The notes: generated by a model from the sequence alone, not told the origin. A stretch of 64,000 nt of DNA from Methanomassiliicoccaceae archaeon UBA472 (GCA_002497075.1 DAML01000026.1:276-64275), one strand, 5' to 3'. Counted from the first letter of the stretch, positions 1,001 to 43,663 are shown. Numbers and translations are program-made.

Positions 1001-1090
1001 TGCATCGGAAATAGTACGCCAAACTCATATATTGCCAGTAAGCGTTCCCTCCCCGGTCAGGAGAGTGCCCAAACGAACGCCAAGGAATTG

Positions 1091-2335
1091 ATGGAGAACG
1101 GGTCCCGCAGCAAGCTTCTGGAAGATCCGTACGTGAAGAAGGTATGGGACCTGATAATGGGCGAGCCGCTCTTCAAGAAGAGCTCGGCCGAATTGGCGTC
1201 CATCAGGGAATCGCTGCGCCGGGAGTCCCTGCAGTTCTTCGCCAGGCACAGCCCTTATTACGTCGACCTTTTCGAACGGCTGGATATCGATCCGGCCAAG
1301 GCCACGCTGCATGACGTCGCGAAATTGGCCATCCCATCGGACATGCTGCGCGGCGAGGGACAGAAGCGCTTCCTGATCCAGGACATCGAGGAGGGCGGGG
1401 AGACCTTCTCCTCCAGCGGCACCACCGGCAAGGACCCGGTCCGCGTATACCGTTCACCAGTGGACCTGGCCATCATGCTCAAGGCCAACACCGACCTGTT
1501 CGAGCACGTATACGGGGATGTTCTGAAACAGGGAGAGGGTGTCGCCCTCTTCATGGCCGCTCCCGAGCTCCGCTACAAGCTGAGCTTCGTGGCCTTCGTA
1601 GACCTGACGTTGGACAAAAAGGGCATAGAGCTGCTGTACGGCATGGACCTGGAGGACAAGTCGCAGGCCGGGACGCCCTGGCAGAAGCTGACCACCAACA
1701 AGGAGAACTTGTTGAAGTTCCTGAAGTCGAAAAAGGAACCGAAGCTGTTCTTCACCGCTCCGGCCGGAGTGCATATCCTGGGCCAGAAGTTCGAGACCAT
1801 GGGCTTCGGCAAGAAGTTGGCATATAAGCTGGCCTCGGGAGCGCCGCCGATCAAACTGGGCAAGGGCGGCATCGTGGTAACTGGCGGAGGAAGCAAGGGC
1901 TTCGCCGACCTTCCGGAATATCCGCAGCTGGTCTCCGACGCGCAGAAGCATTTCATCAGCAAGGACGTCCAAGGAACGCAGATCGACACCCCGTTCATGG
2001 ACGTGCTGGGAATGACGGAGACGCTCACCGCCCTCATCGACCGCTACGGCGTCATGGACAAGGTGCCCCATCCATTGGCCGAGGCGTTCCTGCTGGACCC
2101 CATGACCTTCGAGCCGATCGAGGAGGAGGGAAGGGAAGGCATACTGGGGATATTCAATCCGTTCACGACATCCTGGCTGGAGGTGTTCTATCCAGGAGAC
2201 ATAATGACCTGTCATTCCTCCAAGGGATTCTACGGCAAGGAGTTCGTCTATAAGCGCCGTTTGAGCGTGAAGGAAGGCTGGGACCTGCAGCGGGCCTGCG
2301 GCGGCACCCTGGAAGAGATGATGACCAAGCAGTAG
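1091..2335 (+). CDS. adenylate-forming acyl-protein synthetase / CoA ligase (LuxE / PaaK-like)
   Basis: About 414 aa with the AMP-forming P-loop-like motif FSSSGTTGKDPVRVY. Its position directly upstream of a LuxC-like reductase supports a LuxE-type call. The ATG at 1091 is preferred over the TTG at 1088. Confidence 0.65.
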   Translation: MENGSRSKLLEDPYVKKVWDLIMGEPLFKKSSAELASIRESLRRESLQFFARHSPYYVDLFERLDIDPAKATLHDVAKLAIPSDMLRGEGQKRFLIQDIEEGGETFSSSGTTGKDPVRVYRSPVDLAIMLKANTDLFEHVYGDVLKQGEGVALFMAAPELRYKLSFVAFVDLTLDKKGIELLYGMDLEDKSQAGTPWQKLTTNKENLLKFLKSKKEPKLFFTAPAGVHILGQKFETMGFGKKLAYKLASGAPPIKLGKGGIVVTGGGSKGFADLPEYPQLVSDAQKHFISKDVQGTQIDTPFMDVLGMTETLTALIDRYGVMDKVPHPLAEAFLLDPMTFEPIEEEGREGILGIFNPFTTSWLEVFYPGDIMTCHSSKGFYGKEFVYKRRLSVKEGWDLQRACGGTLEEMMTKQ

Positions 2336-2367
2336 GCGCATGTTTATTTTCCGGGAAGGGCATCCAG

Positions 2368-3840
2368 GTGGCCATGTGTCCCGCCCTGGCCCCGCTGCTG
2401 TTCGATCGTGCCCTAGAAACGGTGCCCTCCTCCGGGAACTCGGAGGTGCTCGAGCTCTCCCCTTCGGCATTGCGGGAGCTGGTGTCGTCCGCGGGAAAGG
2501 TGCAGGCCGAGCTTTCGTCCATCCCCATCGATGAGAGGCTGCAGGTCATCGAACACATCGCGCGCAGATGGAAGCAGAAGCTGGACAACGGGGACTTTGA
2601 GGAACTGAAGAAGGACATGTCCGCCTCCACCGGGTATTCGCCAGCGTTAATGGAGACCGAGCTGTCGTTCGTGCCGGCGGTGCTGGGCGCTGCGAACATA
2701 CGCAAGAACCTGGACGCCTCGGTGCAGGGAGGCGCGGACGCCCTATACAAGTTCGTGGAGGTGGACGAGACGGAGATGTTCCGCCACGTGCCGGTGGGAC
2801 CGGTCCTGATCATCAGCTCCGGGAACTCCATCGTGCCCACGCTGATCCCTACCGTGGTCTCCCTGGTGACCGGGAACCTCACCATACTGAAACCTTCGAT
2901 AGCCAACTACCGCGGGGTCTGCGAGGTCTTCAAGCTGCTGGCGGACGTCCCCGATTCCCGGGCGGCAAGGGCTGTCCGCTCCGCATTGATCGTCTCTTAC
3001 TTCGGGCACGACTCACCCTCCTTGAAGCTCGCCCTGGAAGAGCTGCCGATGGGCATGATCAACTTCTGGGGCGCCGAACCGGCCCGTACCGTCGTGGCCA
3101 ACATGGTCGGGAAGAACCGGAACCACCCGCGCTTCTTCGTCAACGGCCCGTTCACCGGCATGGCGATCGTCGAGGAAGGCGTTGAGATCTTGCAGGCGGC
3201 GGACGACCTGGCCTTGGACGTCGTTCTTTACGACCAGCAGCTGTGCTCCTCGCCCACCACCGGGGTCTTCATCGGAAGTTACGATAAGGCGAAGGAGTTC
3301 CTGAAGGCCGCCGGAGAGCGCCTGGACGAGACGGGGAACGAGTTTCCCCTGACGCCGGACCAGGACCGTCTGTTCATTCTGCAGGGCGCCCGCCGCTTCA
3401 TCCAGACGGACGGAGGGATGGTGCTCTCCTCGAAGGATCCGGAGAACCCCTGGACCCTGGTGCTTTCCAAGGGGAACAGCTCCCTTGTCAACCTTACGGC
3501 ACAGTTCCCGACGTTCAACCTTTTCGCCAGAAGGCGCTTCCTGGAGATGGTGGTGGTTCCGGACGCGGAGAGCGCCTTGCGGTTGCTGAGGTCCCTGCCG
3601 GAGCATCCGGCCTTCAAGGGCATCGACGGAGTGCAGAGCGTTGGATTGGCAGTTACAGAGGCGTCTCGCGATCTTATCGTCAGCAAGCTGATAGGCGCCG
3701 GGGTGCACAGGATACTTCCCTTGGGCGATATGTTCATGCGCGGAGCCGTCGAGCCTTACGATGGGGTGACGATGTCGTCCCTGTTCACCCGCATCGTGTA
3801 CTGGCGCAAAACCAACGCCGCCCTGGAGGGGCAGCTTTGA
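2368..3840 (+). CDS. LuxC-like acyl-CoA/acyl-protein reductase (aldehyde dehydrogenase superfamily)
   Basis: 490 aa. The length and the ALDH-like core (PVGPVLIISSGNSIVPTLIPTVVSLVTGNLTILKPS, DQQLCSSPT with a candidate catalytic Cys) resemble LuxC family reductases. It is paired with the LuxE-like gene 32 nt upstream. Confidence 0.65.
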   Translation: MAMCPALAPLLFDRALETVPSSGNSEVLELSPSALRELVSSAGKVQAELSSIPIDERLQVIEHIARRWKQKLDNGDFEELKKDMSASTGYSPALMETELSFVPAVLGAANIRKNLDASVQGGADALYKFVEVDETEMFRHVPVGPVLIISSGNSIVPTLIPTVVSLVTGNLTILKPSIANYRGVCEVFKLLADVPDSRAARAVRSALIVSYFGHDSPSLKLALEELPMGMINFWGAEPARTVVANMVGKNRNHPRFFVNGPFTGMAIVEEGVEILQAADDLALDVVLYDQQLCSSPTTGVFIGSYDKAKEFLKAAGERLDETGNEFPLTPDQDRLFILQGARRFIQTDGGMVLSSKDPENPWTLVLSKGNSSLVNLTAQFPTFNLFARRRFLEMVVVPDAESALRLLRSLPEHPAFKGIDGVQSVGLAVTEASRDLIVSKLIGAGVHRILPLGDMFMRGAVEPYDGVTMSSLFTRIVYWRKTNAALEGQL

Positions 3841-4814
3841 GAGTGCTGGTCACCGGAGCCACCGGATTCCTGGGCGGGCACCTGATAGAGGAGATGGCAA
3901 GGGGACCTCACGTTCCGATCTGCGCCCACCGCAAGGGAAGCGACACCGGGAAGATCGACGCCCTGGGGCTGGAGAAGGCGGTGTTCGACCTCACCGACCG
4001 CGATTCCATGCTTCAAGCGTTGAAGGGCGTGGACGCCGTGGTGCACCTGGCCGCGTACTACACCTTCACCGGAAAGAAGGAGACGTACGACAAGGTCAAC
4101 GTGAAGGGGACGGGGGACCTTCTCGAAGCGTGCAAGGAGGCGGGCGTGAGGCGCTTCCTGTACTGCAGCAGCACCGAGGCCATGGGGCCGATAGCGTCCC
4201 CGCCGGGGGACGAGGATTCGCCGCTCAACCCGCAGTACGAGTACGGCCGTTCCAAGGCCGGAGCGGAGGAGCTGGTGAGATCGTCCGGCCTGGATTGGAC
4301 CATCCTGCGTCCCTCGGGCATATACGGCCCGAGCAACGTGGACGACGTGGCGTACTACTTCATCACCTCCTTCAAAGGATTCGCCTCCAAGTTCATCATC
4401 GGTTCCGGGAAGAACTACATCCAGTTCGTGCACGTGAAGGACGTGGTGCAGGGATTCGTGAAGGCTTTGGACAGCCCGGCTTCCATCAAAGGGACCTACA
4501 TCATCACCCAGGCCCGGCCGTACACCTACGAGGAGGTGTACCGCGTCCTGGCGGACATATTCCAGAAGAAAGAGCCCCGGTGGCGAGTATCGAGATCGCT
4601 GGCCAAGCTGATGATGCTGCCCATCGAAGGCGTCAGCCTCCTCATCGGCAGGGAGAACTTCCTCTACCGCCGGGAGACCGTGGAGAGCGTGACCAGCGAT
4701 AGGGCGTTCAGCATCGACCGGGCCCGGCGGGACCTCGGTTACGAACCGGTTTACGACCTTCCGGAAGGCATGGCGGAGACGGTGGCCTGGTACCGGGAGA
4801 ACGGCTACCTCTGA
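3837..4814 (+). CDS. NAD-dependent epimerase/dehydratase family (extended SDR) protein
   Basis: N-terminal Rossmann motif VLVTGATGFLGGHL and the YxxxK motif (YGRSKAGAE). The start (TTG 3837 or GTG 3843) overlaps the stop of the upstream gene. Confidence 0.85.
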   Translation: MRVLVTGATGFLGGHLIEEMARGPHVPICAHRKGSDTGKIDALGLEKAVFDLTDRDSMLQALKGVDAVVHLAAYYTFTGKKETYDKVNVKGTGDLLEACKEAGVRRFLYCSSTEAMGPIASPPGDEDSPLNPQYEYGRSKAGAEELVRSSGLDWTILRPSGIYGPSNVDDVAYYFITSFKGFASKFIIGSGKNYIQFVHVKDVVQGFVKALDSPASIKGTYIITQARPYTYEEVYRVLADIFQKKEPRWRVSRSLAKLMMLPIEGVSLLIGRENFLYRRETVESVTSDRAFSIDRARRDLGYEPVYDLPEGMAETVAWYRENGYL

Positions 4815-4859
4815 GCAACAATTAAATGCGCTCTCCGTTTTAACCGTCCCGGTGAGTGG

Positions 4860-5813
4860 ATGGAGAAGACGCTGTACCGCACCCTGCTGAATATGCTGAG
4901 GATCAGCTACACACTGCCTTTTGTCATGGCCTCGGTGACCGGGGCGGCGTTCGCGCTAACGGTTTGCGACGAATGGCTGCTGGCCGTCCTCATTCCCCTG
5001 GACGTTTTCTTCTTCGCCCTTTTCGCCAATCTCAGCAACGATTACTTCGATCACAAGAGCGGCACCGACGCCACCCGCTTCGACTTCATGACCGCCGAGA
5101 GCAAGGAGGCGATCAAGGAGCTTTACGACGAGCGCATCTACTGGGAGGGCAACATCTTCGACAAGGGCGACGTGAGCGAGAGGACCGGCAAGATCGTGCT
5201 TGCCTTCATACTCGCCATGGCGCTGCTGACCGCCATACCGATCATAATGCACGGCGGCTGGCTCGTTATCGCGTTAGGCGCCATCGGTCTTTTCTTAGCG
5301 TACTTCTACACCGCCCCCCCGTTGAACCTGGGGGCGCGCGGCCTGGGCGAGCTGGACGTCGGGACCTCGTTCTTCATGATGTCCTTCTTCACCTACTACG
5401 TCATAAGGCCGGAGTGGTCCTGGCAGATGTTCCTGATCGCTCTCATCGTTGGAACTTCCGTCCTTCTGATGCGTTTCGTGGACCAGATGTCCGGGTACGA
5501 GGCGCACCTGAAGGGCGGGGAAAAGGACTGGACGGTAAGACTGGGGCTGGAGAGGGCGGTGGGCGCGGTCGGCATCGTCCTGCTCATCATCCACGCCATG
5601 CATCTGGGCCTGGTCTACTTCCACCCGGTGTTCCTGATACTTCTGCTCACCATACCCATGGGAAGGAAGCTGACGAAGGGGCTTCACGATAAGAACGATG
5701 GCCTGCGGTTCATCCGGCCGGCCCCGCAGATAGTGAAGATGGTGATCTTCAGCGAACTGCTCATCGTCATTTCGTTGACAGTCCAAAACGCCCTGCCATG
5801 GACAGTATGGTAG
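4860..5813 (+). CDS. UbiA-superfamily prenyltransferase, MenA-like
   Basis: 317 aa polytopic membrane protein. The first Asp-rich motif NLSNDYFDHKSGTD and the second motif region FVDQMSGYEAHLKGGEKDWTVRLG resemble 1,4-dihydroxy-2-naphthoate prenyltransferase. Confidence 0.8.
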   Translation: MEKTLYRTLLNMLRISYTLPFVMASVTGAAFALTVCDEWLLAVLIPLDVFFFALFANLSNDYFDHKSGTDATRFDFMTAESKEAIKELYDERIYWEGNIFDKGDVSERTGKIVLAFILAMALLTAIPIIMHGGWLVIALGAIGLFLAYFYTAPPLNLGARGLGELDVGTSFFMMSFFTYYVIRPEWSWQMFLIALIVGTSVLLMRFVDQMSGYEAHLKGGEKDWTVRLGLERAVGAVGIVLLIIHAMHLGLVYFHPVFLILLLTIPMGRKLTKGLHDKNDGLRFIRPAPQIVKMVIFSELLIVISLTVQNALPWTVW

Positions 5814-6693
5814 TGATGCTGCCCCTGGTTATCAGCGAATATTCGCGCACGGCGTTGAAGCCGCAGCGCTTGCACGATTCCCCCTTCATCGGGCAGCCAT
5901 AGACCTTGCTGCGGTCCGGGAGAACGAACTCCGAGGCCCAGAACGGGCATCTGCACGAATAGTCCTCGATGAGAAGCTCCTTCAGCGCCTTCTTGGAGTT
6001 CAGAATAGGGTAGCCTTCCTTCTTTAGGGCCACGATCTCCTCCACCACCTTGCGCTTCTCCTCGATGCTCAGCACTTTGGCGTCCGGCGGCGGAGTGAGG
6101 AAGTTGATCATCAGGCCGTTGATGCGCGGATCATCCTTGACGATCTGCGCCGTCTCCCGGATGAGGTGCTTGTTATCCGGCATGACCACCATGTTGGCGA
6201 AGACGTTGGGGTGGTCCACCTTCGAGAGGTTCTCCATCATCTTATCGAAAACACCTTTGCACCGGATGGCGTCGTGCGTCTCCCGCGGCCCGTCCAAGGA
6301 GACGGATATGACGTCGCTCTCCGGATAGAACACGTTCGTCCCGTTGGTCGTGTATCCGGTCACGAAGAAGCCGATCTCCTTTCCGGCCTTGATGAGGTCC
6401 AGCAGCGTGCGTTCCCCGTCGCTCCAGCTGGTAGGTTCCCCGCCCTCGAAGAACAGCACCCGGGCCCCTCGCTCGTAGGAGGCCTTCATCTCCTCCACCG
6501 CCACTTCGTAAGATATCTTGTGCGGTTGCGGTATGGATGGCAGGGTCTCTGCTATCTGGCAGTGCTGGCACCTGAGGTTGCACTGGTAGGTTATGATCAT
6601 CGTTGTGGCCAGTGGCTTCTTGAACCCCAGCAATTCCTTGAGGAACCAGATGCCGTAATAGGCGGTCTGGCCGACGGTCCTCGCGACGCCCAT
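5767..6693 (-). CDS. radical SAM protein with Cys-rich C-terminal (SPASM-like) region
   Basis: CxxxCxxC motif CNLRCQHCQ and GGEP motif FFEGGEPT. The C-terminal cysteines are CRCPFW...GCPMKGESCKRCGFN. I chose the ATG at 6693 (GAGGTG just upstream); the ORF is open back to 6807. The 3' end overlaps the convergent prenyltransferase gene by 47 nt. Confidence 0.8.
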   Translation of the reverse strand: MGVARTVGQTAYYGIWFLKELLGFKKPLATTMIITYQCNLRCQHCQIAETLPSIPQPHKISYEVAVEEMKASYERGARVLFFEGGEPTSWSDGERTLLDLIKAGKEIGFFVTGYTTNGTNVFYPESDVISVSLDGPRETHDAIRCKGVFDKMMENLSKVDHPNVFANMVVMPDNKHLIRETAQIVKDDPRINGLMINFLTPPPDAKVLSIEEKRKVVEEIVALKKEGYPILNSKKALKELLIEDYSCRCPFWASEFVLPDRSKVYGCPMKGESCKRCGFNAVREYSLITRGSITTILSMAGRFGLSTK

Positions 6694-6898
6694 GCCCACC
6701 TCATCCCCACCCGGATATTTCAATTGTGGCCGGCACTCGTTCGGTGCCTGTGTATTCTTTGATAAGAAAGGTCTGGCTCGATGTGGCTCGTTCGTTCCTT
6801 CGTTCATCCAGACATTATTTTTGATTGTTTACAATTTTGATAATCATTAAATACAGGCCAACCAGATTTATCTTAAACGACTTTATGGGAGTGATTCA

Positions 6899-7156
6899 AT
6901 GGCAAGCTTGAAGTTAGAGATAATGGACAAGATCGTGGCCTTGATGACCGCGGCCTTCGGTTTCGTCGCTGCGCTGGCCTGGAACGAGGCAATCTCAACT
7001 TTGATGGTTCAATGGTTGGGTGAGGGCGATGATCAGGTATTGGGTCTGCTCATATACGCTGTGATCGTCACCATCGTGGCAGTGATCGCCATCGTCCTGA
7101 TATCCAGGGTGTACGGCAAGATCAAAGCCAAGGAAGAGGCCAAGGAGAAGAAGTAG
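6899..7156 (+). CDS. small two-TM membrane protein with Lys/Glu tail (DUF5654-like)
   Basis: 85 aa with two hydrophobic helices (IVALMTAAFGFVAALAW and GLLIYAVIVTIVAVIAIVLI). GGAGTG precedes the ATG, and the gene sits after an AT-rich divergent promoter region. Confidence 0.6.
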   Translation: MASLKLEIMDKIVALMTAAFGFVAALAWNEAISTLMVQWLGEGDDQVLGLLIYAVIVTIVAVIAIVLISRVYGKIKAKEEAKEKK

Positions 7157-7275
7157 GCCTTTTTCACAAACCCTTTAATCTCTTCCTTTTTTATGATGTT
7201 TCCACTATTGTTCTCGTCGCACCAAAACGATGATAACCGCCCTTGGCTATCCTGAAAACGTACAGGAGGCTTCGC

Positions 7276-8289
7276 ATGAAGGTCAAGGTAGGGATCAACG
7301 GCTATGGCACGATAGGCAAGAGAGTGGCTTGGGCTGTGAACAGGCAAGACGACATGGAGGTCGTCGGGGTCACCAAAACGCGTCCCTCGTACGAGGCTTC
7401 CACTGCCATACGGGAGGGTTGCCCGCTCTACGCGGCACACGCCGAGGACGTTGATAACTTCGAGAAAGCCGGGATCAAGGTCCAGGGGACATTAGACGAT
7501 CTGCTGAAGAAGGTCGATGTCATCGTGGATTGCACCCCTGGTGGTATTGGAGCAAAGAACAAGGAGCTGTACGACAAGGCCGGGGTCAGGTCCATATTCC
7601 AGGGAGGGGAGGACCATGCCATGGCCGGGATATCCTTCAACGCCCTAGCCAACTACCAGGAGGCGTGGGGAGCGTCTTCCGCCCGGGTCGTCTCCTGCAA
7701 CACTACCGGACTGGTCAGGACGCTGTTCCCATTGCAGCAGGCCTTCGGTATCCAGAAGGTGTTCGCGTCCTTGATACGCCGCGGCGCCGATCCGGCCGAT
7801 AAGAAAGGCGCCGCGCTCAATGCTATCGAGCCATCGCTCAAGTTGCCGACCCATCACGGTCCGGACGTCAAGACGGTCATGCACGGGCTGGACATCCAGA
7901 CCATGGCCGTGGTGACGCCGACCACCCTGATGCATCTGCACTGCATCGTGGTCGACCTGAAGAAGGAGGTCAGTGAGAAGGAGGTCCTTGAGGTCTGGTC
8001 GAGATCTCCGCGACTGCAGCTCGTTTCCGGAAAGGATGGGATCAAGAACACCGGCCAGATAATGGAGCTGGCCAAGGACCTGCACCGGGTCCGCGGGGAC
8101 CTGATGGACATCGCCGTATGGAAGGACGGCATCAGGACCATCGGTTCCACCCTGTACTACTATCAGGCGGTGCATCAGGAGAGCGACGTGGTCCCGGAGA
8201 ACGTGGACTGCATACGGGCCATGATGAAGCTGGAGAAGGACAACCTGGCCTCCATCGAGCGGACCAACAAGGCCATCGGCCTCCACTGA
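7276..8289 (+). CDS. gap: type II (archaeal) glyceraldehyde-3-phosphate dehydrogenase
   Basis: MKVKVGINGYGTIGKRVAWAV, the catalytic region VVSCNTTGL and the length match archaeal GAPDH. GGAGG lies 6 nt upstream of the ATG at 7276. Confidence 0.95.
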   Translation: MKVKVGINGYGTIGKRVAWAVNRQDDMEVVGVTKTRPSYEASTAIREGCPLYAAHAEDVDNFEKAGIKVQGTLDDLLKKVDVIVDCTPGGIGAKNKELYDKAGVRSIFQGGEDHAMAGISFNALANYQEAWGASSARVVSCNTTGLVRTLFPLQQAFGIQKVFASLIRRGADPADKKGAALNAIEPSLKLPTHHGPDVKTVMHGLDIQTMAVVTPTTLMHLHCIVVDLKKEVSEKEVLEVWSRSPRLQLVSGKDGIKNTGQIMELAKDLHRVRGDLMDIAVWKDGIRTIGSTLYYYQAVHQESDVVPENVDCIRAMMKLEKDNLASIERTNKAIGLH

Positions 8290-11525: not shown

Positions 11526-12665
11526 ATGGACCCCGCGGAGTTCGACGAACGGTGCAGGAGATGCGGAAAATGCCTGGAAGCCTGTTCGCAATACTCGGAC
11601 ATAGAGATAATAGATTCTTTGGTCGATTATCTGAAGAACGGCAAGGAGAGCTCATTCGACATAACCCAGTGTCTGACCTGCGGGAAGTGCGAATCGGTGT
11701 GCCCGGAGAAGCTCAGCCTCAAGCTGCTCATTAAGGACTCCCGGTTGAAGAGGGTCGCGGCGGCTGGCCTATCTGACATCAACTTCATATGCGATCCCGG
11801 TTACGACCGCAACATCTTCAAGACCGCCGCGGAGACCGAGGAGCCGTTGCTCTTTGAGCCGGGAAAGGCGGACGTCGTCTACTACCCGGGTTGCTATTCC
11901 AGCTACATACACAAGACCATGGTCCTGGCCATCACCCGCCTGATGGAGAGGGCGGGAGTGGACTTCGCCGTCCTGGACGGTCTGGACAACTGTTGCGGAC
12001 TGGCCTCGGCGGGGACCGGAAACCCGGCGGTCATAAAGGCCAACGGACCCAAGATCATCGCCAAGCTCAGGGAGATGGGGGCCAAACAGGTGGTCACCTC
12101 CTGCCCGGGCTGTTTCATGGCCCTGTCCAAGGCGTACCCTGCTATGTTCGGGGAGCTGGGCTTCGAAGTGGTACAGGCATCCCAGTTCCTGAAAGGACTG
12201 ATCGAACAGGGCCGGCTTAAGCCCGGGGAAGGGGCCGGAGGCCGGGTCTATTATCATGACCCCTGCCATCTGACCAGGGGGGCGGGGATCTACAAGGAGC
12301 CGAGGGACCTGTTGGAGAAGGTGCCCGGAACCGAGCTGATGAACCCCGGACCGGAGGGCTCCAACTGTTGCGGCTTCGGGGGAGGGGTGAGGCTGAACCA
12401 TCCTACCGAGTCCATAAAGGCCTCATGCACGGAGCACCAGCAGGTGAAGGCCGAGGGAGGGGACATCATCATCACCAATTGCGCGGGCTGCCGGCAGAAC
12501 CTGATCGAAGGCCGGCCTGAAGACGGTCCCAAGGTTTACGATCTGGCCGAGTACCTGTTGCTCTCCCTGGGCGAAGAGCTGCCTCGTGACGACCAGGCCC
12601 TGATAGATCTGGTGAACAAGGCGTATGCCAGGGGCGTGCGGGGGTACAAGAGGCCAGCCCTGTAG
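11526..12665 (+). CDS. (Fe-S)-binding protein with two CCG domains (HdrD / GlcF / LutA-like)
   Basis: Two ferredoxin-type motifs (CRRCGKCLEAC and CLTCGKCESVCP). They are followed by two cysteine-rich CCG repeats (NCCG...CPGC and HDPCH...CCGFGGG...CAGC). Confidence 0.8.
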   Translation: MDPAEFDERCRRCGKCLEACSQYSDIEIIDSLVDYLKNGKESSFDITQCLTCGKCESVCPEKLSLKLLIKDSRLKRVAAAGLSDINFICDPGYDRNIFKTAAETEEPLLFEPGKADVVYYPGCYSSYIHKTMVLAITRLMERAGVDFAVLDGLDNCCGLASAGTGNPAVIKANGPKIIAKLREMGAKQVVTSCPGCFMALSKAYPAMFGELGFEVVQASQFLKGLIEQGRLKPGEGAGGRVYYHDPCHLTRGAGIYKEPRDLLEKVPGTELMNPGPEGSNCCGFGGGVRLNHPTESIKASCTEHQQVKAEGGDIIITNCAGCRQNLIEGRPEDGPKVYDLAEYLLLSLGEELPRDDQALIDLVNKAYARGVRGYKRPAL

Positions 12666-12731: not shown

Positions 12732-13355
12732 CTACACCCGGGCCGAAATGACCGTGAACAGCCCATCACCGTGCCCTTCTCGGACCGGCTCGGGAGCGGT
12801 CAGGCCTCCTGGATCGGAGAATATGGTCTGGAAGGTGCTCTCGATCGTGCAGCCGGCCTGTTCTAGGAGATCGAACGTCTCGGCGGCCGACAGGAACCTG
12901 GCATCGCGATAGAAACGGCTGCCTTCGGCGCCTGCCTCGTACCTCCTTCCCAGAGAACTGTCCCGGTCCAGTATCCCGACCAACAAAGAACCGCCCCTGC
13001 GGACGACCCTCGTGGCTTCCCGAAGGGCATCCAGTGGGTCATTGACGAAACATAGCACCGTGACCATCAATGCGAAATCGAAGGCTCCGTCGCGGAAGGG
13101 AAGGTTCTCCGCCCTGCCCTGGACGACCTGCAGCCCTTTCTTACCGGCCAGGCGGAGCATGGGGATCGACGGGTCCACGCCCACGACCATCTCGAAGGGA
13201 GTGGAGAAGCGCCCGGTCCCCGACCCGATGTCCACCCCCCGGCCTTCCGGTACTACCTTGGCCAGGGCGGCCAGCTCGGAGCGGTAGGCCCATGGATTGC
13301 GCTCGAACCATTCATCGTATTCCATGGCGAACCGGACGAAGGGGTCGTTGAGCAT
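12732..13355 (-). CDS. class I SAM-dependent methyltransferase
   Basis: Motif I VDIGSGTGRFS and post-I/II motifs (LPFRDGAFDFALMV). It is the last gene of the lysine operon strand. Confidence 0.8.
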   Translation of the reverse strand: MLNDPFVRFAMEYDEWFERNPWAYRSELAALAKVVPEGRGVDIGSGTGRFSTPFEMVVGVDPSIPMLRLAGKKGLQVVQGRAENLPFRDGAFDFALMVTVLCFVNDPLDALREATRVVRRGGSLLVGILDRDSSLGRRYEAGAEGSRFYRDARFLSAAETFDLLEQAGCTIESTFQTIFSDPGGLTAPEPVREGHGDGLFTVISARV

Positions 13356-26708: not shown

Positions 26709-29700
26709 CTACTTCTTTTTAAAGTACACCACCGCAGCTACGGCCACCACCGCTATTATCGCCAGGACCGCGATCACCATGACCCAGGGGGTCCCTCCGT
26801 TCTCCCCGCCGTCGTCCGCCGAGACGAGGGTCAGCTCGCCCAGGTCAGTAATGCCTTCTGCCGCCGATTCGACGCTCATCGAAAGGACCTCATACCCATC
26901 GGCATCCACCGTCAGCGTGTAGTTGCCTTCGCCGACCTGTTCGAAGAGGAAGCTGCCCTGTGAGTCTGTGGTGACGTTGTCCCCGTTGCTCAATCGAACC
27001 TCTATCCCTTCCAAGGGATCGCCATCCCCGTTGACCAGCTTGCCTTGGACGCTGCCTACCGACAATGTGCTGAAGGTCCAGGAGGTCGTCATGGAGTTCC
27101 CGGCCAGGTCCGTTCCGGTCACCGTAACGTTGTGGGCGGTGCCATACGCCAGCCTTTGAGAAAGGGTGAGCGTGGCGGTGTTACCGCTCCAATCTACGCT
27201 GCCCTCCACTCCGTCTACTGTGATCTCCACGGAGGTCTGGTTCATGAGCTCCGAGAACTCGACCACGATGAGGGGGCTCAAGGAAGCCTGGTCACCGGTG
27301 GGGGACACCTCCGCCGTAGGGGCGGTCGTATCCACGGTGAAGTTAACGGTCGCGGTTGCGGAGTTGCCAGCTGCGTCAGTGACCTTCACCTCGATGGTGT
27401 GCGCCCCGTCCTCCAGCGAATATATCCATGCAGTTGCCGACCCCAGTTCGGTCCAGTTCCCCCCGTCCACCCTAACGAAGGTGCCGTTAAGGCTGGATGT
27501 GGGGTCCTCGGCCGTCCATTCCACCGTACCGACGGTGTCATTGAGGAGTGCGCCTTCGGCCGGGGACACGATGACCACGACCGGGTCGTCGAGATCCAGG
27601 GTGAAGTTGCCGGACGATATTGCGAAGTTGCCGGCGGCATCGGTGACCTTGACATATACCGCGTGCGGGCCGGCCGTAAGCGCCAGTTTGACGAACTGCT
27701 CCTCGTACACCAGCACCCAAGGTTCTCCGTCGAACCTTATCTGTATCGTTCCCGGATTGACATCAGAGGTGGTCCAGGTCACCGTCACCGAGGTGACGTT
27801 GAACAGCTGCCCCTCCTCAGGAGTATCAATTTCCAGTGTCGGAGCGATAGTGTCCACGATGAAGGTGACGACCTCGTCCCTGCAATTACCCAAAGCATCA
27901 TAGGCGCTCACCATCACCGTATAAGTGCCATCCTCCAGATCGTTGATGGTATACGAGCTGCCAGTGGTGTTGATGGAGAACGATCCCTCCATGCTCACCG
28001 TGTAGTAAGTGATGCCTGTTCCCGCATCGAAGCCCGCCCAGGTGACCGTTACCTCGCTGTTCGCCACGTAACCGCCTTCGGCCGGGTAGGTTATGCTCAG
28101 CGAAGGCGCCTGGATGTCCACCTTTACCGTGACGGAGTCGGAGGACGATCGGCCGGCCTTGTCGTATATGGTCACGGTCAGGACGTGCGAACCATCACTG
28201 AGCCCATTGAAGGTGTAGGTGTTCACGCTGGGCAGCAATGTCACCGGAGATCCGCCCTCCCAGCTGACCTCGTAACGGTCAACTCCGGAACCGATGTCGC
28301 TGCCGTTCCAGATCACCGTGACACTATTGTCGGTGCTGAGGAAGTTGTCGGCCGGGGAATCGATGGTCACGGTCGGGGAGGTGACATCAACGGTGAAGGA
28401 GACCGCCATGTCCAGGTAGTTGCCGACGGCGTCGTAGGCGCTCACCAGCACCGTATAAGTGCCATCGGCCAGATCGTTGATGGTGTACGAACTTCCAGTT
28501 ACGTTGACGAAGAACATTCCCTCAATGCTAACGGCGTAGTAATCGATGCCGGATTCGGCGTCGCTGCCGTTCCAGGTCACCGTGACGCTGCTTCCGAGGT
28601 ACGCACCCTCCGCGGGATAAGTTATTTCCAAGGTCGGGGGAACGACGTCGAGCACCACTGTTATCGAGGCGTTAGCTTCTGATCCGTGAAGATCGACCAT
28701 GGTCACCGTGATGACGTTGTCGCCATCTGCCAGGGGAACGGCGGCCGTCCAGGCGTCCGTGCCGTAGCAGTCACCGGACGCATCGTTGGCGGCATTGTGC
28801 CAGGTCAGATGGTCCACGCCGAAGTAACTGAGCGCAGTTCCGGAAATGTCGACGCTAGTCTCGCCGGTGGCGAACCCGTCGGCCGGGGAGGTTATCGCCA
28901 CGCTTACAGCCAGCGGCAAGAGGTCTTTGCTCGCCCCGCCATCGATCAGGTACGCCTCGTCCACGATGCCATCGCCGTTGGAATCCGGAGAGGTCCAGTC
29001 GGCCCACAGGTTGCCGTACTCTGTATCGTTCCAGAAGTTCTCCCCACTGTCGTACGCCTGAACGTGCGCAGGGTCGTACTCAGATGTCGCGCCATTGTTG
29101 CCGATCAGCACATTGCCGAAGATGTGGTTCCTTGTCGAGGAGGTGATGCTAATGCCATACGCCATGCTGCTCTCGATGGTGTTGTTGGCGATTGTGTTCC
29201 CATAACAGTCGTCGTCTCCAACCCCAGTTAGGATCATGCCGTTGTGGTTGTTTACGAGGGTATTGTCGGCGATAACGTTGTTGTACGACCGGTACTCAAA
29301 ATACATACCCGCCATGCTGTTGTCCTCGCAGGTGTTGTTGATCACCCTGGAATCGTACAGCGGCCCTTGCACCCAAATTCCGTACACGTTGCCGATGCAG
29401 GTGTTGTTGGCTATCACGTACCGCGCTTTATCATACCAGATGTTGTTGATCTCGATCCCTTTATCAGCGTTGTTGCTGAAATCGTTCCCTTCCATACGAA
29501 TATCATCCCCACCCGAGATGGATATCCCATAGTCGGAACCCATGCAGGAATTGTTTGTTATGTTATTGTTAGAAGATGATACCACGTTGATGCTCCTGCG
29601 AAGCCCCATGAAATAATTGTTGTAGTTCAGCTCATTGAATGATATGCTGTTGAAATTGGAGCCATCCATGATCAGACCAACACCATTGTGTTCGCAGATG

Positions 29701-31880
29701 TTCCTGAATACCTCGTTATGATCGGAGCCGTATAATTTGATCCCAACAGTAGAGCTTGGACCATTAGCGGGGTTGTCTGCGATGCAGGTGTTCTTATCCA
29801 GAATGTTGTACTGTGCATTCTCCAGCAATATACCGCAATTGCCATTGTCCTGGCAATAGTTGTTGAACAGGGTGTTGCTGGCAGAGGTGCCTATGACGAT
29901 TCCGTGCCCGATGTTCTGATTACAAGTGTTGTACGACAACAGATTCCTTTCAGAATAACCGACCGTTATGCCATGCATGGCGTTATTGTTGCAGGAGTTC
30001 AGAATTAACGTGTTGTCATCGCTGTCCGAGCTTAGCAAGATGCCATATGTGTTGCCGTCGCACACGTTGCCAGCGATCGTGCTGTCACTGGACTGGAAAA
30101 CCACGATGCCATCATAGTTCCCGGTGCAAGTGTTATTGAGCATCGACGAACCGGGAGAGTTGGATACGCTAATTCCGTCATAGTTTCCGGTGCAAGTGTT
30201 ATTGCTGACCGTGGAATTGGCAGAGGATTCGATCACTATCCCGACATTCCCGCTACAGGTGTTGTACGATATCGAATTGTTCGCCGAGCCGTCCAGCAGT
30301 ATACCTGTGTAGACATTATCTATGCAGGTGTTGTGGTCAATGTCGTTCAGCTGGGAAATGCCCGTAACGTATATGCCAAACTCATTATCGGTGCAGTTGT
30401 TCTCGGTGATCGAGTTGCCCGACGAATTATAGAGGAATAATCCGAAGGTGTTCCCATCGAGGTCGTTCCCAGACAACTCGTTGAGATCGGAATCGGAGAG
30501 GTATATACCGTCCGTGTTGAGCTCTCCGGTATTGTTCCGTATCACGCAGCGCTCAGAATTATCCAGCCATATCCCGGAATCCCCATTTTGGTAGACGGTG
30601 TTGGACGAAACTATGGTGTATGAGGAACCTTCGAGCCTAATTCCAGAACCGGCATTATCGTGGACGGTGTTGAAGGCAATGGTATTGTTTGGCGAGTTGA
30701 GGATGTAAATTCCGTAATAGTTGTCGCTGCAGTCGTTCCCTACCATGGTGTTGTACGACACCAGATAGGAACCTGACCACAGTTGAATGCCGTAGCATTC
30801 CCAAAGTGCGCCAGGGTACGAGCACTGATTGTTGAGAACCGTGTTGAATCGGCTATCGAAATAGCCGGATTTGATAATTATCCCGGCGTAGGCGTACCCG
30901 TTGCAGTGGTTGTCCGAGACGGTGTTGTTATTGGAGGAGTCGACCTCTATGCCGTTCCCTTCGTTGTCGAGGCAGGTGTTGGCGTGGACGGTGTTGTTGT
31001 CAGAGAGGGTGAGCAGTATCCCGCCGTAATTGTAACTGCAATTGTTCTCGATGAGGGCGTTGTAATGGGAATAGTCAAGAGTTATGGCCGCGGAACCGCT
31101 CAGGCCGTTGCTACAGTTATCCCTGAACAAGGTATTGTTGACCGCGTCGATCAGGGCGATGCCGGTCCCGCATGCGTATAAGGTATTGTTGGAAACGGTG
31201 TTGTTGGCGCTGAAGTCTATTGTGATGCCGCTGTTCTGAGAGCGGATGCAGATGTTACCGTTGATGACGTTCCAGTCGCTCTCCGATTGAACTAGTATCC
31301 CATCGAACGTGTCGTTGCAGGTGTTATTGTTTAAGATGTTATCGCTGGATTCGGTGAGATATACACCAGTTTGCCCACCCGAGCAGTTGTTGTAACGTAT
31401 CGCTACTTCGTTCGAACCGTCCAGGTAGACGCCCACATCGTTTTCCCTGCAATCGTTCCCGTTCACGACTATGTTCGAACAGGCCCCCAAATAGATTCCG
31501 AATGTGGTCTGGTTGCAGGAGTTGTTCTCCAGGACGACGTTCTGAACGTTGTAGAACCTTATCGCGTAGTTCGTGGGATCGTGCAGGACGCAGTCCTTGA
31601 TCACCAGGTATCGGTCGGTGTTCCTGATCCAGATCGCCGCATCATACGTGGCGGCATTGATGTCCAGGTTCTCGATTATGTAGGGATCTGCTTCCGTGCC
31701 TAAACCAGCCCAGGCAGGATTGCTGCCGAACAGGTCGTCCAATTCCGCGTTGCCGTCGACGCTGATGGGCATGAACGGATCTGCCGCCTCGGCAGAACCC
31801 GCCATCAATGTGGACAACAAGACTAGAGCAGTAAAGATCAACAGAACAGATCCGATATACTTACCGAACACCTTTTGCAT
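26709..31880 (-). CDS. giant cell-surface protein: signal peptide, about 870 aa of parallel beta-helix (PbH1/NosD-like) repeats, tandem Ig-like domains, carboxypeptidase-regulatory-like domain, C-terminal TM anchor
   Basis: 1723 aa. The N-terminus is a signal peptide ending AGSAEA. Repeats of about 22-23 aa of the type NNTCxxNxxGIxl recur dozens of times. The Ig-like modules contain W.GSD..SG...Y motifs. The C-terminus is VMVIAVLAIIAVVAVAAVVYFKKK. Confidence 0.85.
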   Translation of the reverse strand: MQKVFGKYIGSVLLIFTALVLLSTLMAGSAEAADPFMPISVDGNAELDDLFGSNPAWAGLGTEADPYIIENLDINAATYDAAIWIRNTDRYLVIKDCVLHDPTNYAIRFYNVQNVVLENNSCNQTTFGIYLGACSNIVVNGNDCRENDVGVYLDGSNEVAIRYNNCSGGQTGVYLTESSDNILNNNTCNDTFDGILVQSESDWNVINGNICIRSQNSGITIDFSANNTVSNNTLYACGTGIALIDAVNNTLFRDNCSNGLSGSAAITLDYSHYNALIENNCSYNYGGILLTLSDNNTVHANTCLDNEGNGIEVDSSNNNTVSDNHCNGYAYAGIIIKSGYFDSRFNTVLNNQCSYPGALWECYGIQLWSGSYLVSYNTMVGNDCSDNYYGIYILNSPNNTIAFNTVHDNAGSGIRLEGSSYTIVSSNTVYQNGDSGIWLDNSERCVIRNNTGELNTDGIYLSDSDLNELSGNDLDGNTFGLFLYNSSGNSITENNCTDNEFGIYVTGISQLNDIDHNTCIDNVYTGILLDGSANNSISYNTCSGNVGIVIESSANSTVSNNTCTGNYDGISVSNSPGSSMLNNTCTGNYDGIVVFQSSDSTIAGNVCDGNTYGILLSSDSDDNTLILNSCNNNAMHGITVGYSERNLLSYNTCNQNIGHGIVIGTSASNTLFNNYCQDNGNCGILLENAQYNILDKNTCIADNPANGPSSTVGIKLYGSDHNEVFRNICEHNGVGLIMDGSNFNSISFNELNYNNYFMGLRRSINVVSSSNNNITNNSCMGSDYGISISGGDDIRMEGNDFSNNADKGIEINNIWYDKARYVIANNTCIGNVYGIWVQGPLYDSRVINNTCEDNSMAGMYFEYRSYNNVIADNTLVNNHNGMILTGVGDDDCYGNTIANNTIESSMAYGISITSSTRNHIFGNVLIGNNGATSEYDPAHVQAYDSGENFWNDTEYGNLWADWTSPDSNGDGIVDEAYLIDGGASKDLLPLAVSVAITSPADGFATGETSVDISGTALSYFGVDHLTWHNAANDASGDCYGTDAWTAAVPLADGDNVITVTMVDLHGSEANASITVVLDVVPPTLEITYPAEGAYLGSSVTVTWNGSDAESGIDYYAVSIEGMFFVNVTGSSYTINDLADGTYTVLVSAYDAVGNYLDMAVSFTVDVTSPTVTIDSPADNFLSTDNSVTVIWNGSDIGSGVDRYEVSWEGGSPVTLLPSVNTYTFNGLSDGSHVLTVTIYDKAGRSSSDSVTVKVDIQAPSLSITYPAEGGYVANSEVTVTWAGFDAGTGITYYTVSMEGSFSINTTGSSYTINDLEDGTYTVMVSAYDALGNCRDEVVTFIVDTIAPTLEIDTPEEGQLFNVTSVTVTWTTSDVNPGTIQIRFDGEPWVLVYEEQFVKLALTAGPHAVYVKVTDAAGNFAISSGNFTLDLDDPVVVIVSPAEGALLNDTVGTVEWTAEDPTSSLNGTFVRVDGGNWTELGSATAWIYSLEDGAHTIEVKVTDAAGNSATATVNFTVDTTAPTAEVSPTGDQASLSPLIVVEFSELMNQTSVEITVDGVEGSVDWSGNTATLTLSQRLAYGTAHNVTVTGTDLAGNSMTTSWTFSTLSVGSVQGKLVNGDGDPLEGIEVRLSNGDNVTTDSQGSFLFEQVGEGNYTLTVDADGYEVLSMSVESAAEGITDLGELTLVSADDGGENGGTPWVMVIAVLAIIAVVAVAAVVYFKKK

Positions 31881-32076
31881 ACGAATGTCCCCCTTGAATG
31901 AAATGGGACCTTATGGGAGGACCGCCATTAATGGTTTCGCCGCAAATTTTCATTTCATGAACGAACTGGACGCGTTCGGATCACCTTAGTTTCGGCAGAT
32001 GGGGCAAGGGAGAACGGACCGTTCCGCCCCGAGAAATGACAATTCTTTAATAGTCAGTTCGCCAACGGTGGACCGG

Positions 32077-34408: not shown

Positions 34409-34414
34409 GGGGAC

Positions 34415-43654: not shown

Positions 43655-43663
43655 GACCGTTCA

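Follow-up and report, generated by a model that had tools for sequence, protein, structure and literature searches.

Among the closest described counterparts of the locus reported here is the LuxC-LuxE complex of Photobacterium phosphoreum (7XC6), in which an adenylating subunit and an ALDH-fold reductase are encoded by adjacent genes. The Lys238/Arg355 pair of LuxE is catalytic by mutagenesis, and Cys364, located in a short flexible C-terminal motif (TRxxKGCxLS), accepts the acyl group (PMC9157457), while the usual ALDH catalytic Glu/Asn are absent from LuxC (PMC12041015). LuxE and LuxC homologs also occur outside light production, in the flagellin glycosylation islands of Aeromonas and Enterobacteriaceae (PMC4875605, PMC7874193), where the pairs are accompanied by an acyl carrier protein, FabG, an AMP ligase, and glycosyltransferases. 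PaaK-type ligases (e.g., PaaK1, 2Y27, and BT_0428, 4R1L) offer a second comparison for the adenylating subunit; they use CoA and possess neither a C-terminal Cys tail nor a LuxC partner. A literature search found no description of the archaeal cassette discussed below, in which LuxE-type and LuxC-type genes are followed by an extended SDR gene.

In the DNA of Methanomassiliicoccaceae archaeon UBA472 (GCA_002497075.1, DAML01000026.1:276-64275; “the window” refers to this whole stretch of 64,000 nucleotides), the ORF listing contains five genes, G1 to G5, of which four are on the plus strand and one is convergent on the minus strand:

G1, 1091-2335 (alternative start 1088), plus strand, 415 aa: predicted LuxE-type acyl-protein synthetase with an ANL/PaaK-like fold
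G2, 2368-3840, plus strand, 490 aa: predicted LuxC-type acyl-thioester reductase
G3, 3837-4814, plus strand, 325 aa: extended SDR, probable aldehyde or keto reductase
G4, 4860-5813, plus strand, 317 aa: UbiA-superfamily membrane prenyltransferase
G5, 5767-6693, minus strand: radical SAM enzyme (long ORF, 5767-6807)
4815-4859, plus strand: putative G4 promoter element, conserved G3-G4 intergenic sequence
1001-1090, plus strand: possible promoter of G1-G3, a weak candidate containing an AT-rich ATATATT

G1 and G2 are separated by 32 nt, G3 starts over the stop of G2 (a 4-nt overlap, TTGA), 45 nt lie between G3 and G4, and G4 and G5 overlap convergently by 47 nt. These genes and spacings agree with the initial annotation, and the motifs quoted there are all present. 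The third-position GC content is 0.80-0.87 in all five ORFs in a window of ~60% GC, and they can therefore be regarded as coding sequences rather than chance ORFs.

The LuxE/LuxC/SDR trio

The assignment of G1 to the LuxE type is based on family membership of its homologs and on catalytic residues. G1 contains an SSGTTGK motif (residues 109-115) and has homologs of 54-98% identity in many archaeal phyla (54-66% across phyla). A profile check gave a divided result for the proposed LuxE/LuxC pair: G2 passes its Pfam model, whereas G1 itself has no match in Pfam, even at E 10. However, two G1 homologs of ~64% identity exceed the gathering cut-off of the LuxE family PF04443 (24.9 bits), namely P0058 (25.9 bits, profile positions 15-387 of 391) and P0072 (30.1 bits). 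P0058 also matches the LuxE chain 7XC6_E (E 3.6e-4), and via this homolog, not via G1 itself, LuxE K238 (GGGWK) and R354-R355 align with K270 (GGGSKG) and R390-R391 of G1, all of which are invariant across 51 sequences. In addition, a Cys close to the C-terminus of G1, Cys404 in QRACGGT (12 residues from the end), is nearly invariant: all of 12 sequences have it, as do no fewer than 90% of a set of 51 family members. It sits on a disordered C-terminal tail (pLDDT <50 for residues 405-415). More distant relatives likewise terminate in R-x-x-C-G. A LuxC gene lies immediately 3' of the G1-type gene in 73 of 82 loci; it also comes next in the distant relatives, but no SDR gene follows there. In P0371, a G1-like domain and LuxC are naturally fused, and the Cys motif lies where the two meet.

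For G2, the match to LuxC PF05893 is well above threshold (E 4.6e-31; 108.5 bits vs. a cut-off of 21), and the general Aldedh family is also matched. Its alignment with 7XC6_A (E 7.8e-7) places YDQQLC293SSPT over YDQQACFST, so that Cys293, the putative single catalytic Cys, is equivalent to LuxC Cys296; it is conserved with its flanking residues as in G2 in at least 97% of 69 homologs. The Lys/Arg pair, the C-terminal Cys tail, the aligned LuxC Cys, gene adjacency, and the natural fusion all bear out the initial view of G1 and G2, which we predict to be a genuine LuxE-type acyl-protein synthetase and a genuine LuxC-type thioester reductase. Nevertheless, sequence similarity to the lux system is very low. 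G2 scores 40.1 bits against the LuxC equivalog NF052251, for which the cut-off is 750 bits; G2 and the enzyme of the lux operon are not orthologues, and specificity for long-chain fatty acyl groups is not to be assumed. Unlike the lux system, the archaeal cassette has no luciferase or LuxD, includes an extended SDR, and is hosted by anaerobic archaea.

It is worth noting that the predicted fold of G1 is closest to PaaK. PaaK1, PaaK2, and other PaaK-family CoA ligases head the Foldseek matches (TM 0.59-0.64 over ~380 columns, with 0.64 for PaaK1), the SSGTT motif is common to both, and a profile search against the PDB yielded the PaaK-like 4R1L as the one match, a weak one. G1 (415 aa) is also ~40 residues longer than LuxE (373 aa) and aligns with most of the 427-aa PaaK1. 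LuxE is reported to lack the ANL C-terminal subdomain (PMC9157457), and the PaaK1 alignment covers regions said to be missing from LuxE; the length of the G1-PaaK1 alignment suggests that G1 may keep part of this subdomain. Since G1 has no Pfam match and its fold is nearest to PaaK, free CoA is a possible acyl acceptor. In a rival reading, G1 is a common acyl-CoA ligase of the PaaK type, and its free CoA thioester is the substrate of G2, acting as an acyl-CoA reductase/aldehyde dehydrogenase; the two would have a catabolic or fermentative role, e.g., as an acid-to-alcohol electron sink. The JGI label “phenylacetate-CoA ligase” on many G1 homologs and the Aldedh match of G2 agree with such a role, but we consider it unlikely. 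G1 is only 13-16% identical to PaaK proteins, and a near-invariant Cys tail, the LuxE Lys/Arg pair, the PF04443 membership of close homologs, and a fusion with the Cys motif at its junction all point away from it, as does the lack of the ALDH catalytic Glu/Asn in LuxC (PMC12041015). Because it would also consume ATP (to AMP) and two NAD(P)H, the route would be unattractive for energy metabolism.

The third gene was initially described as an SDR, and this description is upheld by motifs, family match, and conservation. The GATGFLG motif occupies residues 7-13 (G7xxG10xxG13), the catalytic triad of S111 and Y136xxxK140 (YxxxK) is intact, and G7, G10, G13, S111, Y136, and K140 are conserved as in G3 in at least 97% of 65 homologs. 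The best family match is to Epimerase PF01370/3beta-HSD (E 9e-42), and GDP_Man_Dehyd, RmlD, and dTDP-glucose 4,6-dehydratase structures are also matched. Over its full length G3 matches 3WJ7_A (E 9.5e-33), which we take to be a non-sugar reductase. The best NCBIfam models were HpnA (141 of 368 bits), SdmB (126 of 600), and OleD (117 of 580), all below cut-off and indicating resemblance only; these three relatives act on lipid-like substrates.

The matches of G3 to sugar-modifying families raise the possibility that the SDR is a nucleotide-sugar epimerase or dehydratase, in a trio that modifies a sugar or glycan and in which LuxE and LuxC supply or modify an acyl substituent. The LuxE/LuxC pairs of bacterial flagellin glycosylation islands provide a precedent (PMC4875605, PMC7874193). 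However, beside the archaeal trio there is no conserved glycosyltransferase, acyl carrier protein, or sugar-nucleotide gene, and the archaeal cassette has an extended SDR in place of the accessory genes of those islands. The best full-length matches of G3 (3WJ7, HpnA, SdmB, and OleD) are non-sugar reductases, and every sugar-enzyme NCBIfam cut-off was missed widely, all of which makes a glycan-related role improbable.

By contrast with its surroundings, which differ and are unrelated from one lineage to the next, the trio itself is a tight cassette whose order is conserved in about ten archaeal lineages: among loci outside Methanomassiliicoccales, 32 of 36 keep it, as do all 19 Methanomassiliicoccales loci with enough flanking sequence. 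This conserved order supports the view that G3 belongs with G1 and G2. An ATATATT at 1027-1033, ~60 nt upstream of the G1 ATG, lies within the region that is a possible promoter of the unit. The trio (1091-4814) is most likely a self-contained cassette that takes a carboxylic acid to the alcohol. In the proposed relay, G1 would convert the acid to acyl-AMP and pass the acyl group to its own Cys404 on the flexible C-terminal tail, and the tail would hand it to Cys293 of G2, which would use NAD(P)H to convert the thioester into an aldehyde. The final reduction to a primary alcohol would most likely be performed by the G3 SDR, a step that we infer from gene linkage. The substrate is probably hydrophobic (aliphatic or isoprenoid), considering weak family resemblances and the presumed identity of 3WJ7.

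The UbiA-radical SAM pair

G4 belongs to the UbiA superfamily (PF01040, E 3.8e-16; 59.6 bits vs. a cut-off of 34.2) and appears, by sequence, to fall on its ChlG/MenA/UBIAD1 branch. Like ChlG (9SAU), UBIAD1 (8DJK), and MenA, it has the first NDxxDxxxD motif, here NDYFDHKSGTD at residues 60-70, and the YTAPPLxLxxxGLGE region. The first Asp-rich motif is intact (N57..N60-D61-x-x-D64-H65..D70), with NDYxDHxxGxD invariant in homologs; the second is non-canonical (D208xxxG212..H216), with His216 where ChlG has Asp. The “MenA-style” label given to G4 holds for the NDYFDHKSGTD motif and the superfamily, but MenA membership was not confirmed. All MenA models were missed (31-65 bits vs. cut-offs of 102-555; 64.6 vs. 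225 bits for the best and 31.3 vs. 102 for TIGR00751), as were the NCBIfam cut-offs for ChlG, and the altered second motif likewise fails to support MenA membership. No men or mqn genes were found among the window ORFs examined, part of which were family-scanned, and none are conserved in related loci. Among solved structures, chlorophyll synthase (3.7e-9) and UBIAD1 (7e-5) come nearest. In contrast to ChlG, UBIAD1, and MenA, G4 has an extra conserved loop (YWxGNxFDxG), its clade is found in Methanomassiliicoccales only, and the G4-type gene is paired with a radical SAM gene as a convergent neighbor in 50 of 51 Methanomassiliicoccales metagenome loci.

The intergenic sequence between G3 and G4 is probably G4's own promoter. 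It holds GCAAC-N2-3-TTAAAT, with TTAAAT at 4822-4827, ~35 nt upstream of the G4 ATG, followed by a ribosome-binding-like GGTGA at 4851-4855. The TATA-like element is conserved in eight related loci, and the same AAACGTTAAATCCGC element occurs 5' of the UbiA gene in L082, a locus without the trio.

G5 matches Radical_SAM PF04055 (E 3e-16; 60 bits vs. 29.5). Because its homologs are 308-310 aa long, the real start is taken to be the ATG at 6693 (Met39 of the long ORF), a position that coincides with the end coordinate of the initial annotation. CNLRCQHC (CxxxCxxC) is invariant in the family, as are four more Cys in the C-terminal region, and the protein has an N-terminal hydrophobic helix. This core and Cys-rich auxiliary-cluster region are shared with SkfB, CteB, anSME, MoaA, and GDGT-MAS/Tes, which Foldseek also returned (E 2.5e-9 to 6e-6), the highest identity being 23%, to GDGT-MAS. 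Of the label “radical SAM/SPASM-like”, the radical SAM part is confirmed, and the C-terminal Cys and the structural matches fit a twitch/SPASM-type enzyme; the SPASM Pfam model, however, has no match in G5. Since G5 lacks the complete seven-Cys motif of SPASM, the auxiliary domain is best described as twitch-like. G5 is much shorter than Tes and, unlike the methylases, ring synthases, and desaturase known to act on archaeal lipids, has no B12-binding domain. It reached no NCBIfam family cut-off, the best being the PTO1314 family (49 vs. 306 bits).

Separability of the trio and the pair

The initial annotation had joined the LuxE, LuxC, SDR, and UbiA genes in a possible single pathway. When gene neighborhoods were compared, the trio portion of that quartet stood, but its linkage to the UbiA gene did not extend beyond Methanomassiliicoccales, as none of the 36 trio loci elsewhere has a UbiA gene nearby. 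Extended to all five genes, such a pathway would lead from a trio-derived aldehyde or alcohol through UbiA prenylation to radical SAM modification. The end product in Methanomassiliicoccales would then be a new lipid or quinone-like carrier, both reduced and prenylated. Precedents for prenylation of a hydroxyl or carboxyl acceptor exist within the UbiA family (DGGGP synthase and chlorophyll synthase), and chlorophyll synthase is the nearest solved relative of G4. The trio and the UbiA gene also share an orientation across the 45-nt gap and are linked in 13 of 19 Methanomassiliicoccales genome loci and in 12 of 30 metagenome loci (the latter being loci retrieved with the UbiA gene; the eight window genes were tested by tblastn). 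This adjacency persists down to 47% UbiA identity, and there may be a functional link within the clade.

Against this, the two sets of genes are often found apart. The trio is missing upstream of the UbiA-radical SAM pair in the other 18 of the 30 metagenome loci, and six Methanomassiliicoccales trio loci lack the UbiA gene. Trio deletion scars adjoin intact pairs in L102, L143, L128, and L110, which points to four or more losses of the trio that left the pair whole. Among the trio-less loci, L082 keeps the synteny and L083 has a different one, and the promoter-like element of the UbiA gene is retained in the former. Moreover, trio-UbiA adjacency is confined to a single clade in the G1 tree and therefore counts as one evolutionary event. 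We thus place little credence in a single five-gene pathway.

Overall, the locus probably comprises two independent units side by side, of which the trio would be an acid-reducing cassette with an acyl relay. The second unit (G4-G5, 4860-6693), specific to Methanomassiliicoccales, would combine a UbiA prenyltransferase and a radical SAM enzyme of the twitch/SPASM type that is associated with the membrane; a link to tetraether backbones or to an electron carrier is speculation. The pair would presumably make, and then modify, a prenylated membrane compound, and its position next to the trio appears to reflect synteny inherited within one Methanomassiliicoccales clade rather than a shared pathway.

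Gene layout and surroundings

The five genes under discussion and three flanking genes are arranged as follows.

461-1000, GrpB gene (flanking)
1091-2335, plus strand, G1, LuxE-type synthetase gene (alternative start TTG at 1088)
2368-3840, plus strand, G2, LuxC-type reductase gene
3837-4814, plus strand, G3, extended SDR gene
4860-5813, plus strand, G4, UbiA-superfamily prenyltransferase gene
5767-6693, minus strand, G5, radical SAM gene (start ATG at 6693)
6899-7156, DUF5654 gene (flanking)
7243-8289, archaeal type II GAPDH gene (flanking)

The spacing is 32 nt between G1 and G2, -4 nt (TTGA) between G2 and G3, and 45 nt between G3 and G4, and the 3' ends of G4 and G5 share 47 nt; the four plus-strand genes and the converging minus-strand gene are all present as the initial annotation described them. 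Because homologues of G5 are 308-310 aa long, the ATG at 6693, which is also the end coordinate of that annotation, is considered the true start. GC at third positions is 0.80-0.87 in all five genes, as is typical of real genes in a window of ~60% GC. Among public sequences, a Methanomassiliicoccales MAG comes closest (98% identity for G1), and an Rfam scan of the whole window gave no match.

Other gene groups were identified elsewhere in the window. LarA-like (lactate racemase family), HdrD-like CCG/4Fe-4S and pterin-binding (MtrH/DHPS-like) genes are consecutive at 31999-35575, the HdrD-like gene being the second of its kind in the window, and a polyphosphate kinase gene is followed by one for a protein with CHAD, metallophosphoesterase and Ppx/GppA domain III at 51947-56217 (plus strand). 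The window has its lowest GC (0.51-0.54) in the part with 26709-31880 (minus strand), a gene whose 1723-aa product carries repeats of NosD/right-handed beta-helix and Ig-like domains and is probably a surface protein. A second low-GC stretch (0.505-0.545) with TrkH/TrkA potassium-uptake genes (42086-45007, minus strand) has a third-position GC of ~0.65 versus ~0.8 elsewhere and may be foreign DNA.

LuxE/LuxC-type features and proposed chemistry of the G1-G3 trio

Fatty acid reductases of the LuxE/LuxC type are known mainly from bacterial bioluminescence. A Pfam search with G1 of the window gave no match even at E 10, while two of its homologues (~64% identical) pass the PF04443 (LuxE) gathering score, one of them across nearly the whole profile, and one of the two also matches LuxE of the cryo-EM structure 7XC6 (E 3.6e-4). 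In the alignment made via this homologue, G1 K270 (GGGSKG) lies opposite LuxE K238 (GGGWK), and G1 R390-R391 opposite LuxE R354-R355. Mutagenesis identified LuxE K238 and R355 as the pair driving adenylation and thioesterification, and the acyl acceptor of LuxE is Cys364, within the flexible motif TRxxKGCxLS at its C-terminal end (PMC9157457). The G1 counterparts of K238 and R355 are invariant in the family (n=51), and Cys404 of G1, in QRACGGT 12 residues before the C-terminal end, is near-invariant; residues 405-415 have a pLDDT <50 in the AlphaFold model.

Out of 1.84 billion cluster representatives, a G1 profile retrieved just 72 relatives at E <=1e-3. All ten full-length relatives with retrieved sequence have a comparable Cys motif close to or right at the C-terminal end, in the form R-x-x-C-G in eight and as RGC and FGCC in the remaining two. 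In one relative (P0371, 884 aa), a G1-like and a LuxC domain are naturally fused, and the Cys motif sits where the two meet; two further distant relatives have a LuxC gene directly downstream. The nearest structures to G1 are PaaK CoA ligases (TM ~0.6, 13-16% identity), and a PaaK-like fold is expected for LuxE-like proteins; the authors of 7XC6 had themselves compared LuxE with PaaK1 (PMC9157457). Overall, the Pfam scores of the homologues, the Lys/Arg pair, the Cys tail and the fusion identify G1, at the level of sequence, as LuxE-type.

The fusion gene (L170:6001-8655) closes a same-strand gene run (L170:668-8655). Ahead of it come genes for a carbamoyltransferase, for two proteins without assigned function (399 and 369 aa) and for a radical SAM/SPASM protein, the last with its stop directly against the start of the fusion. 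The run contains no SDR and looks like a different, uncharacterised biosynthetic cluster.

G2 is clearly a LuxC-family protein: it passes PF05893 with 108.5 bits (cut-off 21) and matches LuxC of 7XC6, with YDQQLC(293)SSPT opposite YDQQACFST, and Cys293 and its neighbours are the same as in the window in at least 97% of 69 homologues. The proposal of LuxE/LuxC-type enzymes in the initial annotation is therefore borne out for both proteins, which are not an ordinary PaaK and ALDH. G3, an extended SDR, keeps both its cofactor motif and the Ser-Tyr-Lys triad intact. Among named families it comes closest to HpnA, SdmB and OleD, with scores far under each cut-off, and among solved structures to 3WJ7 (E 9.5e-33 over the full length), which we take to be Gox2253, a reductase acting on C7-C10 aldehydes.

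Based on conserved residues and the LuxCE precedent, G1 would turn a carboxylate and ATP into an acyl-AMP and load the acyl group onto Cys404 in its tail, from where it would be transferred to Cys293 of G2 and released as an aldehyde with NAD(P)H. Linkage and family resemblance suggest that G3 would then reduce the aldehyde to a primary alcohol. The substrate might perhaps be hydrophobic. To our knowledge, conversion of a carboxylic acid to an alcohol by a covalent Cys relay is not known in archaea.

Distribution of the trio among archaea

The G1 family profile matched 88 loci among 185,579 species representatives, all of them MAGs, and 80 were fetched. The trio occurs in ~10 archaeal lineages, including Methanomassiliicoccales, Methanomethylicia, Odinarchaeia, Nitrososphaeria, Conexivisphaerales, Brockarchaeota, Bathyarchaeia/Bathyarchaeota, Thermofilaceae, Sulfolobales/Zestosphaera/Desulfurococcaceae, Archaeoglobales and Methanofastidiosia. 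Across these phyla, identity is ~35-50% for G2, ~45-55% for G3 and 54-66% for G1, the last being unusually high for such a range. Among loci with at least 6.5 kb past the G1 start, the complete trio is found, with its order unchanged, in 32 of 36 outside Methanomassiliicoccales and in all 19 inside, and a neighbour-joining tree of G1 roughly tracks taxonomy. As the order is kept across lineages while the flanks are unrelated from one lineage to another, we consider the trio a self-contained, strongly constrained cassette.

ORF clustering of 82 loci, in which most other recurring "families" are antisense ORF artefacts, revealed only lineage-specific conserved neighbours beyond the trio and no clue to its substrate. 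In Methanomethylicia (e.g., Methanosuratincola, L087:6944-12666), an HTH regulator and two thioredoxin-like genes lie upstream of the trio, and a glutaredoxin and a ferredoxin-thioredoxin-reductase/rubredoxin fusion, kept in 9-10 loci, lie downstream. These neighbours could reflect a link to redox stress or plain lineage synteny.

A literature search found no paper on an archaeal LuxE/LuxC/SDR cassette. The nearest described non-luminous LuxE/LuxC pairs are those of bacterial flagellin glycosylation islands (PMC4875605, PMC7874193), which have other partner genes than the trio and are without tested function. Compared with LuxE/LuxC of bioluminescence, the trio is divergent and has an SDR permanently attached.

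The UbiA-radical SAM pair and its relation to the trio

The initial annotation joined the trio to the UbiA gene as one quartet. As a conserved structure, this quartet fails outside one clade: no UbiA homologue lies within the fetched flanks of the trio in any of the 36 loci outside Methanomassiliicoccales, and the 13 of 19 Methanomassiliicoccales loci with one beside the trio all fall in one part of the G1 tree. Homologues found with G4 as seed (41-95% identity) are limited to Methanomassiliicoccales-type contigs. In 50 of the 51 loci that extend far enough, a radical SAM gene is adjacent to and convergent with the UbiA gene. Directly upstream of UbiA lies an SDR in 22 of 57 loci and the complete trio in just 12 of 30. 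A hemerythrin gene takes the place of the trio in L082, a locus in which the surrounding synteny (acetolactate synthase, UbiA, radical SAM, DUF5654, GAPDH, PGK) is kept, and in L083 the pair is found in a rearranged context. In addition, four loci have an intact pair with deletion scars of the trio immediately before it.

Deletion scars of the trio
L102:7491-7952, G1 residues 1-87 joined to G3 residues 258-325
L143:6477-7115, G1 residues 1-100 and G3 residues 166-325
L128:3407-3793, G1 residues 1-129 alone
L110:2691-2966, G3 residues 234-325 alone

The UbiA protein of L102 is 82% identical to G4 of the window, so that the loss there is recent and in a close relative. Judging from such remnants, the trio was lost independently, several times, in Methanomassiliicoccales. 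The 45-nt spacer between G3 and G4 contains a conserved GCAAC-N-TTAAAT/TTATAT ~35 nt before the ATG, plus GGTGA, and AAACGTTAAATCCGC is also present upstream of the UbiA gene in the trio-less L082; this element is a putative BRE/TATA-type promoter of G4's own. Taken together, a two-unit architecture, with trio and pair side by side, is very probable.

GrpB and DUF5654 stay close to the pair despite rearranged gene order, as in L083:7653-11509 (DUF5654, UbiA, radical SAM, a 344-aa protein without assigned function, GrpB). The arrangement suggests an older neighbourhood of GrpB and the UbiA gene, with the trio inserted between them later.

G4 passes the general UbiA model and widely misses every MenA, ChlG and BchG cut-off, and a profile of its family found only chlorophyll synthase (3.7e-9) and UBIAD1 (7e-5) among solved proteins. 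The first Asp-rich motif, NDYxDHxxGxD, is invariant. In the second, D208xxxG212...H216 (residues 208-216, window ~5481-5507), His216 is invariant in the clade at the position where chlorophyll synthase has its second metal-binding Asp, and the clade has an extra conserved loop, YWxGNxFDxG (invariant as W95-x-G-N-x-F-D-x-G103, residues 95-103, window ~5142-5168). DGGGP synthase and heme O synthase were rejected as identities for G4, as no such model matched.

G5 has a CxxxCxxC motif, four more invariant cysteines in its C-terminal part and a hydrophobic helix at the N-terminus; it lacks a B12 domain and reaches no NCBIfam cut-off. Foldseek groups it with the twitch/SPASM enzymes SkfB, CteB, anSME, SuiB and MoaA, and the match with the highest identity (23%) is GDGT-MAS, an archaeal lipid enzyme. 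The radical SAM enzymes already known to act on archaeal lipids, which are B12-dependent or much larger, were rejected as an identity for G5, as was a B12-dependent methylase for butanetriol/pentanetriol backbones, given the missing B12 domain. A literature search on Methanomassiliicoccales UbiA, radical SAM, prenyltransferase, menaquinone or butanetriol lipid biosynthesis returned nothing on these genes. We infer that G4 would prenylate an acceptor and that G5 would then modify the product by radical chemistry, the natural guess being a prenylated membrane compound altered in this way. The full proposal, i.e., two units with these roles for the pair and the acyl reduction for the trio, is held with moderate confidence.

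For cultured Methanomassiliicoccales, a MenA-like "ubiA" (AGI85875, AGN26416, WP_019178349) and a "ubiE" were listed as genes of a liposoluble, uncharacterised electron transporter (Borrel et al., 2014; PMC4153887). A UbiE-type methyltransferase adjoining the UbiA gene was seen in none of the other loci examined. Between PGK and an aminotransferase, the window encodes two proteins, an HdrD-like one (4Fe-4S dicluster and two CCG domains; 11526-12665) and a class I methyltransferase that weakly matches UbiE/COQ5 (12732-13355). As PGK and the aminotransferase are adjacent in L082 and L085, the HdrD-like and methyltransferase genes, ~6 kb from UbiA, look like a clade-specific insertion.

The single pathway first proposed for G1-G5 is quite unlikely and would apply as a clade-specific add-on, in the Methanomassiliicoccaceae in which trio and pair adjoin; the trio itself holds as its own cassette. 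The alcohol of the trio (or the acid or aldehyde) would then be the acceptor of G4, followed by modification by G5. This would give an isoprenoid membrane compound, with an ether or ester link, that is new to science and could be the lipid-soluble carrier "X" of Borrel et al. (2014; PMC4153887). Under the favoured two-unit architecture, trio and pair are better studied separately. Knowing the substrate of the trio could point to an archaeal lipid or metabolite that has so far gone unrecognised, and the UbiA-radical SAM pair, near-universal among the sampled Methanomassiliicoccales loci, offers two concrete genes with which to ask what prenylated membrane compound this order makes.
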